Virus record (IMG/VR): IMGVR_UViG_3300012281_000006
Strand: one strand, 5' to 3'
Source: a virus
Lineage: Duplodnaviria; Heunggongvirae; Uroviricota; Caudoviricetes
Length of the DNA stretch: 18,129 nucleotides
Shown here one piece after another: positions 13,472 to 16,384 of this stretch. The translations under genes were made by a program, and so were the position numbers. The notes beneath the pieces are model-generated. The model was not told where the DNA came from and did no database searches. It was given only the letters and a program-made list of their open reading frames with translations. Position 1 is the stretch's first letter. Each line of letters starts with the position of its first letter.

Positions 13472-14369
13472 GCACTGGAAAAACATTTCTATTTATAAAG
13501 TTTCTCGTGAGGCGGATCTGACCGACTTAGAAGATAAAAAGAAAATGATCCTTTTCACGCCATGCGGTAGTCAGGATATGGCCAAGTTCGGTTTTGTATC
13601 GCCATTTGGTGATAATTCCGAAGTTATCGCTATGCATGGAAATGGTTTTATCCTTGTTGAAGCAAAGCGCGAAACAAAAATTCTTCCCCCGCCGGTTATC
13701 CAGCGAGCTATTCAAGAAAAAATTGAAAAACTTGAGCAAGAACAAGCACGTAAACTGAAGAAGACAGAGAAGGACTCCCTGAAAGACGAAGTTCTGCATT
13801 CTCTTCTGCCACGGGCTTTTTCAAAGTTTTCTGTTATCCAGGCGATCTACGACGGTTCAACTAAACGTATCTATATTAATGCCAGCGCGCGGCAGGCTGA
13901 GGATATGCTCGCGCTTATGCGTAAGTCTCTGGGTTCTCTTCCTGTTGTTCCCCTAAGTGTTGAAAATCCCATTGAATTAACGCTGACCGACTGGGTACGT
14001 GATGGTAGTGCTCCACAGGGATTTCAAATGGGGGATGCGGCAGAACTTAAGGCAGTTCTTGAGGATGGCGGTATTGCCCGAGTGAAAAAGCAGGATTTGG
14101 GAAGCGATGAAATTTCCACACACCTGGAAGCTGGCAAGCGCGTCACTAAGTTGGCTCTCGACTGGCAGAACCGGATTAAATTTACACTGGACCATAACTT
14201 CAGCCTTACCAGCGTCAAATTTGCGGATGAATTGCTTGAGCAGAACTCTGATATTGATAGTGAAGATGTTGCGCAGCGACTGGACGCAGATTTCTTCCTG
14301 TTGACCAGTGAAATTTCGTGCTTGGTTGATGCTCTGGTAAATGCCCTTGGTGGAGAGGCTAAGCAGTGA
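13464..14369 (+). CDS. hrdC: RdgC-like recombination-associated DNA-binding protein (HrdC)
   Basis: [16 protein letters not shown]...[19 protein letters not shown]...[51 protein letters not shown]... aligns along its length with E. coli RdgC as I recall it. Confidence 0.9.
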
Positions 14370-16384
14370 AAGAGCTGTGCTATGGATCTGTTTGCAGTGG
14401 AATTGAAGCCGCGAGTATTGCCTGGGAACCGTTGGGTATGCGTCCGGCGTGGTTTGCTGAAATCGAGCCTTTTCCATCAGCCGTTCTTGCGCACTGCTGG
14501 CCCCATGTCGCAAACCTTGGCGACATGACAAAACTTGCCCAAAAAGTCCTGGCTGGGGAAATCGAATCCCCTGATGTGCTCGTCGGGGGAACACCTTGTC
14601 AGGCATTCAGTATCGCGGGATTAGGTGGTGGGCTTGATGATGAGCGTGGCGCGCTAACTTTAAAGTATGTGGAGCTTGCAAATGCAATTGACGACAAACG
14701 GGCTGAGTCATTTCTCAAACCAGCAGTTATCGTATGGGAAAATGTCCCAGGAGTCTTGTCATCGGCAGATAACGCCTTCGGATGTTTCCTTGCCGGATTG
14801 GCTGGAGAAGATGCGCCATTCGAACCAGGTGATCGACCTGAATCAGGAAAAAGTAACGCGTTCTGGCGGTGGGATGTCAAAACCGGTTGCCATGCTCCAA
14901 AGTGGCCGCAGTGTGGTTGTATTTATGGACCGCAGCGAAAAGTGGCCTGGAGAATCCTTGATGCCCAATACTTCGGAGTGGCACAACGACGCCGACGCGT
15001 GTTTGTTGTCGCAAGTGCTCGAACAGACCTCGATCCCGCAACGGTACTTTTTGAGTTCGAAGGCGTGCGCCGGAATATTGCGCCGAGCAGAGGCGAGGGG
15101 AAGGAAACTACCAGATATACTTCAAACATCGCTATCAGATCTTGCGATGATACAAACATAGTTGCCATGGCACATGGGCAAGGAGGGGCTGAGATAAAAA
15201 CCGATAATTCGGCACCAACTTTGACATGTAACCATGAAGCACCAATTGTATTGCTCGGCGACGGTAGAATGCGCCGTCTTACCCCTGTCGAATGTGAAAG
15301 GCTGCAAGGTTTTCCTGATGGACATACATTGATCCCTACGGGAAAGCGTAAAAAAGTTTCTTCAGATGAGCTGGCATGCCTTCGCAATCACTATCCAGAT
15401 TTAAGCGAAGAAGAGGCCGCGATGTTTGCAGCTGACGGACCGCGTTACAAAGCGATCGGCAATAGTATGGCGATACCAGTAATGCGCTGGATTGGCGATC
15501 GGATTACCAAGGCTGCATGTCGGCAGAATGAAGGGAATGAAACAAAAGAGCGAAAAGTTAAACCAGCGGCAGAATTCGAACGGTCCATATTCAAATGGGC
15601 TGGTGGAAAATTTGGTGTTCTGGAACAAATCTTTCGCTATTTGCCAGAAGGGAAGCGCCTGATTGAACCTTTCGTTGGTGGCGGAGCTGTCTTCATGAAT
15701 GCCGGATACAAGGAAAATCTGCTAAATGATGTGAATGCTGACCTGATTAACTTTTACAAGATTTTGCAACGTGAGGAACGTTCACTTATCACTCTGGCGC
15801 ATCGGTTTTTCCAGGACTACAACACACAGGAAGGATACCTGGCAGTACGGAATGCGTTTAACAAACAAGTCTATGATGATTTACATCGCGCAGCGGCGTT
15901 TTTGTTCCTGAACCGACATTGTTTTAACGGATTGACGCGTTACAACCAGGCCGGTGAGTTCAATGTCGGTTATGGGAAGTATAAAACTCCGTATTTCCCA
16001 TTACAGGAGATGGAAGCCTTCCTCGGTGCGGAAGGGCGTTCTGGGTTTGTATGTGGTGATTTTGCTGTGGTGATTGAAGCTGCCGGAGAAGGAGATGTCA
16101 TTTTTTGCGATCCGCCATATGAACCGCTTCCAAATACAGAGGGATTCACGAACTATTCCGGTCATGACTTTAAGTTTGAAGAGCAAAAACGCCTGGTGTC
16201 TCTGTTGACAGATGCTCATCGCCGAGGTGCAAAGGTTCTCATTACTAACAGTGGCGCGCCAAATATCAGAGAGCTTTATCATGACAGTGGCTTCAGGGTG
16301 GAACCTCTTTTTGCCAGACGTTCTGTGTCTTGTAAGGGGGACACTCGAGGTGTAGCTCATGACGTTTTAGGTATATTGCTCTAA
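14366..16384 (+). CDS. dmt: Bifunctional DNA methyltransferase Dmt: N-terminal C5-cytosine MTase domain fused to C-terminal Dam-like N6-adenine MTase domain
   Basis: GTG start overlapping the hrdC stop; C5 motifs [43 protein letters not shown]; then Dam motifs [11 protein letters not shown] and FCDPPYEP. Confidence 0.9.

Follow-up and report, generated by a model that had tools for sequence, protein, structure and literature searches.

A short, P7-type allele of the P1-family dmt gene encoding fused C5-cytosine and N6-adenine methyltransferases

The DNA analyzed here (hereafter the window, meaning the entire stretch of 18,129 nucleotides) shares 97.7% identity with phage P1 over P1 coordinates 51161–70325. 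Among its program-listed open reading frames (ORFs), the one at 14366–16384 on the plus strand begins with GTG and encodes 672 amino acids. Based on the ORF, Pfam matches, and identity to P7 and P1 proteins, this gene is dmt (named dam in P7), which encodes a fused C5-cytosine and N6-adenine methyltransferase. Its neighbors, namely uhr, hrdC, Oban, and the tRNA-Asn/Thr genes, are those found in P1 and P7.

Upstream of uhr-hrdC-dmt lies the C1 operator Odmt (formerly Op68; 13099–13115, plus strand), a 17-mer (ATTGCTCTAATAAATAT) that is identical in P1 and P7 and is overlapped by a sigma-70-like site. The first gene of the operon, uhr (13187–13471, plus strand), matches P1 uhr and P7 upf64.0 in position and ATG start. 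It is followed by hrdC (13464–14369, plus strand), a member of the RdgC family (PF04381, E = 9.6e-98, aa 5–298). The TGA of hrdC overlaps the GTG of dmt (GTGA at 14366–14369) and a GGAGAGG Shine-Dalgarno sequence is present 7 nt upstream of the dmt start, which makes translational coupling of dmt to hrdC plausible; the preliminary description of this DNA had likewise called the gene translationally coupled to an RdgC-like hrdC. The plus strand between uhr, hrdC, and dmt yielded one weak, chance-level match to a terminator-like site and no others. At the downstream end, the dmt stop codon (TAA, 16382–16384) is overlapped by the divalent C1 operator Oban (16375–16402, unstranded), whose sequence does not differ from the one in the P1 and P7 annotations. 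Both the P1 and P7 records annotate the two operators flanking dmt as C1-controlled, and Odmt as the one that controls dmt.

The product of this ORF is 96% identical to P7 Dam across all 672 residues and 90% identical overall to P1 Dmt, which has 754 residues. The gene is annotated as dmt or dam in 18 punavirus phage records. In the P1 record (AF234172), dmt is a "bifunctional DNA methyltransferase" that modifies N6 of adenine in GATC and "perhaps" C5 of cytosine, while the P7 record (AF503408) labels dam a "hypothetical bifunctional DNA methyltransferase". The fused C5 and Dam architecture and the punavirus hrdC-dmt-Oban locus were both found in the window, as in other members of the P1 Dmt family. 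By sequence, the ORF is the P7-type (short) allele of P1-family dmt, i.e., a gene that is already known. Given the existing annotations in P1, P7, and other punaviruses, the observation re-identifies this gene and has little value beyond correct annotation, as GenBank AF234172 (P1) and AF503408 (P7) already list it. The only fresh angle is that the cytosine-targeting segment of dmt appears to be a swappable cassette that differs among P1-like phages.

Such an unusual architecture, together with masked runs of N elsewhere in the window, including a masked stretch at 9793–10054, might raise the suspicion that an error in sequencing or assembly fused two adjacent genes. However, P7 has the same uninterrupted 672-aa frame, as do many independent E. 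coli records (one cluster alone has 991 members), and there is not a single N within 14366–16384. The recurrence of the same frame in independent records and the lack of Ns in the gene rule out an artifact as the cause of the fusion, such that this explanation is barely conceivable.

For domain composition, the dmt product matches PF00145 in three stretches (E = 1.6e-34; 120.2 bits against a cut-off of 22) and PF02086 at aa 411–643 (E = 9.8e-56). The order of C5 first and N6 second that was given in the preliminary description thus agrees with the Pfam search. The terms "Dcm-type" and "Dam-type" used there are appropriate at the family level, as the product exceeds the cut-offs of the NCBIfam models TIGR00675 (113.2 bits against 100.65) and TIGR00571 (248.9 bits against 114.85), but do not extend to the E. 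coli-specific models: the product scored 23 bits against a cut-off of 710 for the E. coli Dcm subfamily model (NF007772) and 243.3 bits against 441 for the E. coli Dam equivalog model (NF008152). These scores indicate that "Dcm-type" holds for the C5 half solely at the superfamily level, and that the Dam half is a Dam family member rather than a host-type ortholog. The overall layout is a C5 methyltransferase (approximately aa 1–383) connected through a short charged linker to a Dam-family enzyme (approximately aa 405–672) in one polypeptide.

The C5 half has its motifs in the canonical order of I, IV, VI, VIII, variable region, IX, and X. These include CSGIEA (aa 10–15), GTPCQAFS (aa 75–82, with PCQ at aa 77–79 and the catalytic cysteine at 78), WENVPG (aa 124–129, with ENV at aa 125–127), QRRRRVF (aa 207–213), a 19-residue motif IX (aa 303–321), and a 10-residue segment of motif X (aa 363–372) that includes AIGNS (aa 363–367). 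All motifs quoted in the preliminary description, including KWAGGK and DPPY of the Dam-like domain, are present in the 672-aa ORF. In a family alignment of 68 sequences, residues P77, C78, Q79, E125, N126, V127, Q207, R211, G365, N366, and S367 are invariant. The catalytic part with motifs I–VIII (14366–15085, plus strand) is supported by the invariant residues from P77 to R211, the core of an AlphaFold model, and Foldseek matches, and the part with motifs IX–X (15272–15514, plus strand) is supported by motif positions and the invariant G365, N366, and S367. In the AlphaFold model, the pLDDT of the C5 catalytic core is mostly 80–96. A Foldseek search of the C5 half against PDB returned M.HhaI as the best match, as well as DNMT3A/B and M.HaeIII, all with a probability of 1.00; together with the model, these matches confirm the methyltransferase fold.

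The two enzymes are joined by a charged linker (15515–15577, plus strand), which follows the last C5 helix and precedes the segment that aligns with Dam; in this linker, aa 388–404 have pLDDT values below 50. The Dam-family N6-adenine methyltransferase domain (15578–16381, plus strand), defined by the E. coli Dam alignment and TIGR00571, contains KWAGGK (aa 410–415), PFVGGGAV (aa 435–442; the AdoMet motif FxGxG), and the catalytic DPPY (aa 582–585). This half aligns end to end with residues 5–266 of E. coli Dam (2g1p; E = 1.2e-58), with conservation of KWAGGK, FxGxG, NGL-R-YN, and DPPY. Counterparts of K9, N120, L122, R124, and Y138, the residues of E. coli Dam that contact GATC, are all kept in the alignment, while Y119 is replaced by F and P134 by G. 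The Dam halves of the window allele and P1 Dmt are about 97% identical. The literature establishes for P1 that the Dam half methylates GATC, and given this near-identity the same would be expected of the window allele.

The variable target-recognition region (aa 241–302; 15086–15271, plus strand), which consists of a leader and a single module designated W, is the sole segment that could not be aligned to P1 Dmt. The W module has about 29 aa and was located at 15164–15250 (plus strand) by the module analysis. The replaced block between C5 motifs VIII and IX has 62 aa in the window and 144 aa in P1 Dmt, which accounts for the whole length difference between the two proteins. The comparison with the reference Dmt that the preliminary description had proposed gave the same domain order, with lengths of 672 and 754 aa that differ through a replaced target-recognition region. 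Among PLSDB plasmids, the block of the window and P7 was found in 184 and the P1 block in 257. The variable region has pLDDT values below 50, such that the AlphaFold model says nothing about target recognition. Replacement of the target-recognition region, as the source of the difference from the reference length, had escaped the preliminary description.

Among relatives, the W module recurs at 70–90% identity within much longer variable regions, where it adjoins other short segments, most with a [P/H]-T-L core. In a first set of 100 relatives, 16 seed modules covered about 59% of the variable regions and revealed about 40 different module arrays. The window and P7 have W alone, whereas P1 Dmt has three modules (G-B-H), Salmonella phage SJ46 (Dmt of 807 aa) has four (I-W-D-J), and the longest arrays have seven (A-W-b-C-D-E-F). 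Arrays such as C-K-D-A and K-W-C-D-A-E are examples of altered order. Punaviruses alone thus have at least three arrays (W, G-B-H, and I-W-D-J). The composition of this first set favored the module of the query itself, and the search was repeated with only aa 1–240 as the seed. Library-wide, this search found 2,721 cluster representatives at E ≤ 1e-30, which are enzymes of enterobacterial phages and prophages. The modular picture held in the 90 best-ranking proteins that contain both anchor motifs; 63 different arrays were found and module order varies freely. In these 90 proteins, motifs VIII and IX lie 89 to 417 aa apart (median about 250), and the 89 aa of the window allele is the minimum. 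The module catalog is incomplete, given that seed coverage of the variable regions in the first set was no more than about 59% and that 16 of the 90 proteins match none of the 16 seeds.

The short spacing may be taken to suggest that the variable region is a deletion remnant, and that the C5 half no longer methylates DNA and serves as a DNA-binding or structural appendage of Dam. Consistent with this possibility, the 89 aa is the shortest spacing in the family against a median of about 250 aa, and the literature searched contains no report of m5C activity for Dmt. However, all catalytic residues are kept and are invariant in the family. Pairwise dN/dS relative to P1 and P7 is 0.10–0.24 for the C5 segments, as low as the 0.10–0.13 for the Dam segment; these values suggest purifying selection on both halves, with the small counts (7–30 substitutions per segment) to be kept in mind. 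Moreover, the short allele is conserved at 95–100% identity in 184 plasmids, the retained W module has the TL core seen in other modules, and M.HhaI and other monospecific enzymes have a spacing close to 89 aa. Loss of methylation by the C5 half is thus unlikely. Instead, the C5 half of the window allele is intact and probably methylates a short target that contains cytosine and would be read by the single W module. As P1 Dmt has three modules (G-B-H) and the window allele has one unrelated module, the two are expected to differ in cytosine target. For either of these alleles or any other, no determination of the Dmt cytosine target was found in the literature searched.

These patterns suggest a broader, tentative hypothesis for the C5 enzymes of the Dmt family, to which we give slightly less than even weight. 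The family may consist of multispecific enzymes with shuffled arrays of TL-core modules of about 30–40 aa, and P1-like phages may swap these arrays to evade restriction, with the window allele as a minimal, monospecific form. Between motifs VIII and IX, multispecific enzymes have at least two recognition domains in tandem, and the window allele has one module there. If this hypothesis is true, exchange of arrays among P1-like phages would change which restriction systems are evaded. At stake is whether exchange of the recognition cassette accounts for differences among P1-like phage-plasmids in host range or restriction evasion, as well as the role of the cytosine half of Dmt in one of the best-studied phages. 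P1-like phage-plasmids are frequently found in clinical E. coli and Salmonella, in some cases with resistance genes such as mcr-1 (PMC5786510). Because both main alleles are frequent (184 and 257 plasmid records), a comparison between them would be experimentally easy.

For biological roles, the conserved operators suggest that dmt would be repressed by C1 in the plasmid prophage and produced in lytic growth. As the last gene of the uhr-hrdC-dmt operon, dmt would be shut off by the C1 repressor along with uhr and hrdC in the plasmid prophage, and lytic growth would turn the operon on. The P7 record also contains a predicted internal late promoter, LPdam2, which could give rise to a separate late Dam protein. 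This candidate was rejected, as it is predicted in a single record only and the P1 annotation lacks it; the LPdam2 site is conserved in the window save for one change in the -10 hexamer relative to P7.

P1 requires GATC methylation at pac for packaging cleavage (PMC12707154, citing Sternberg and Coulby 1990). Because of this requirement, dmt is essential in dam- hosts only (PMC12707154), and a CRISPRi screen in a dam+ host scored it as non-essential (PMC10695390). GATC methylation by the Dam half would allow the packaging enzyme to cut pac and make the phage independent of host Dam. The C5 half would most likely shield progeny DNA pre-emptively from restriction enzymes that are blocked by m5C, and restriction evasion is a reasonable hypothesis for this half. 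On the other hand, DNA with m5C would be open to attack by the McrBC-type enzymes that E. coli K-12 possesses, which is a cost that the anti-restriction interpretation must absorb.

Another feature of the window that may be related to adenine methylation is the plasmid origin oriR (10650–10862, minus strand), which has five incC iterons, five GATC sites, and two DnaA boxes and is context rather than part of the dmt unit. As the preliminary description had noted, oriR has five GATC sites; these are located at 10785, 10792, 10802, 10813, and 10836 (cluster 10785–10839), flanked by five 19-bp iterons (cores 10650–10744) and two DnaA boxes (10845–10862). When 74 sites were placed at random, a cluster as tight as this one (five within 55 bp) arose in 0.36% of the placements. 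The spacing of 7, 10, 11, and 23 equals that of the five annotated "Dam methylation sites" in P1 oriR. The distance from dmt had been given as 6 kb, but 3.5 kb (10839 to 14366) separates the cluster from the gene, which lies downstream of it.

The same description had suggested that a phage Dam-like activity could affect replication from oriR. A stronger version would hold that this activity exists to keep the five oriR GATC sites methylated and thereby supports plasmid replication. The presence of all five sites, matching the annotated Dam sites of P1 oriR, is in line with this idea. Moreover, P1 plasmid replication reportedly requires methylated DNA (Abeles and Austin 1987). However, dmt lies behind a conserved, annotated C1 operator and would be repressed while oriR is in use, and the enterobacterial hosts of this phage already have their own Dam. 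The repA gene of the window has a private in-frame stop (TAG at codon 112), such that the sequenced form of the replicon may be non-functional. In addition, the role assigned to the enzyme in a review is pac cleavage (PMC12707154). Considering the prophage silence implied by the C1 operator and the documented role at pac, an effect of dmt activity on replication from oriR appears weakly founded and a functional link between dmt and oriR is unlikely; that maintenance of the oriR sites is what the phage Dam activity exists for is very improbable. Given the conserved C1 operator, dmt should be off when oriR fires, which would leave host Dam to act on the origin. The most likely source of methylation at the oriR GATC cluster is host Dam rather than the dmt product.

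Taken together, the ORF is with high confidence a P7-type dmt that encodes a C5 and Dam fusion under C1 control, in which GATC methylation would license pac cleavage and the C5 half is intact, with oriR most likely left to host Dam. Among known systems, P7 Dam (AAQ07538.1, AF503408) is the closest match and has the same 672 aa, single-module variable region, operon, and flanking C1 operators; it differs from the window only in scattered substitutions, one of which is in the LPdam2 -10 hexamer. P1 Dmt (AAQ14041.1, AF234172/NC_005856; 754 aa) is the same gene at the same position and in the same operon, with the same catalytic cores and Dam domain, and has about 97–99% protein identity outside of the variable region. 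Compared with E. coli Dam, the C-terminal half of the dmt product differs in being fused to a C5 enzyme, phage-encoded, and repressor-controlled. The C5 half shares its fold (Foldseek E = 5e-12, probability 1.00) and motif order with M.HhaI, the monospecific prototype, at 16–19% identity; it has extra insertions between motifs VI–VIII and IX–X, and the recognition regions of the two are not comparable.

The multispecific C5 methyltransferases of Bacillus phages (SPR, phi3T, rho11s, and H2) provide a further parallel, as they likewise have one catalytic core with recognition elements between motifs VIII and IX. These enzymes carry several recognition domains in tandem (PMC8936443, PMC12707154), and one of these reports treats P1 dmt as a Dam only (PMC12707154). 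The tandem, shuffled TL-core arrays found in relatives of Dmt are reminiscent of these enzymes in layout. The window allele, with its single module, differs in this respect from the multispecific Bacillus phage enzymes.

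Some P1-like dmt genes contain a 341-aa intein with Hint and LAGLIDADG domains, which was found in phage RCS47 (comparison locus L005, approximately 532–1554), at the same codons in the P1 isolate OP279344 (L006), and in four related C5 methylase proteins from the family search (P0030, P0034, P0082, and P0121). The dmt gene of the window is without intein. The insertion splits the PCQ motif precisely at the Pro77–Cys78 junction (GGTP/CFTAGH...VVHN/CQAFS, with slashes at the intein boundaries). Because the intein is sited right before Cys78, the catalytic cysteine is also the +1 splice residue. 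The intein is found alongside either recognition array: the RCS47 gene carries G-B-H, and the OP279344 gene carries W.

In six relatives of the dmt C5 module (proteins P0047, P0098, P0104, P0107, P0110, and P0115), the C5 domain is fused to PF05869, an adenine methylase family unrelated to the Dam-family PF02086 domain that it replaces. This replacement indicates that the C5-plus-N6A pairing arose with more than one adenine methylase partner.

For repA, codon 112 (window 10250–10252, minus strand) is TAG in place of CAG (context LSF*EF), which cuts RepA to 111 aa. This TAG was seen in none of the 374 matching PLSDB records, and the top match is 99% over 101 nt. The stop could be a true nonsense mutation or an amber allele of laboratory origin, or it could stem from an error in sequencing. 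A full assessment of repA is impossible because a 262-base run of Ns (window 9793–10054) falls within the gene; this run exceeds the P1 sequence that it replaces by about 177 nt. Another N run of 48 bases is located at window 480–527.

Downstream of dmt, after genes for tRNA-Asn and tRNA-Thr, the window carries a tRNA-Ser gene (anticodon TGA; 17687–17773); no tRNA-Ser is annotated within the examined stretches of P1 or P7, which extend about 2.4 kb downstream of dmt.

Within dmt, the counterpart of the P7 internal late promoter LPdam2 lies 5' of the Dam half (window 15354–15372) and differs from that of P7 only by a single A-to-G substitution within the -10 hexamer. LPdam2 is a prediction in the P7 record, whereas the P1 record has no such annotation. 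If functional, the predicted site could give rise to a Dam-only product. Finally, the Dmt of Salmonella phage SJ46 (L004, 300–2723; 807 aa) has a four-module array, I-W-D-J, which represents a third allele of the recognition region among punaviruses.
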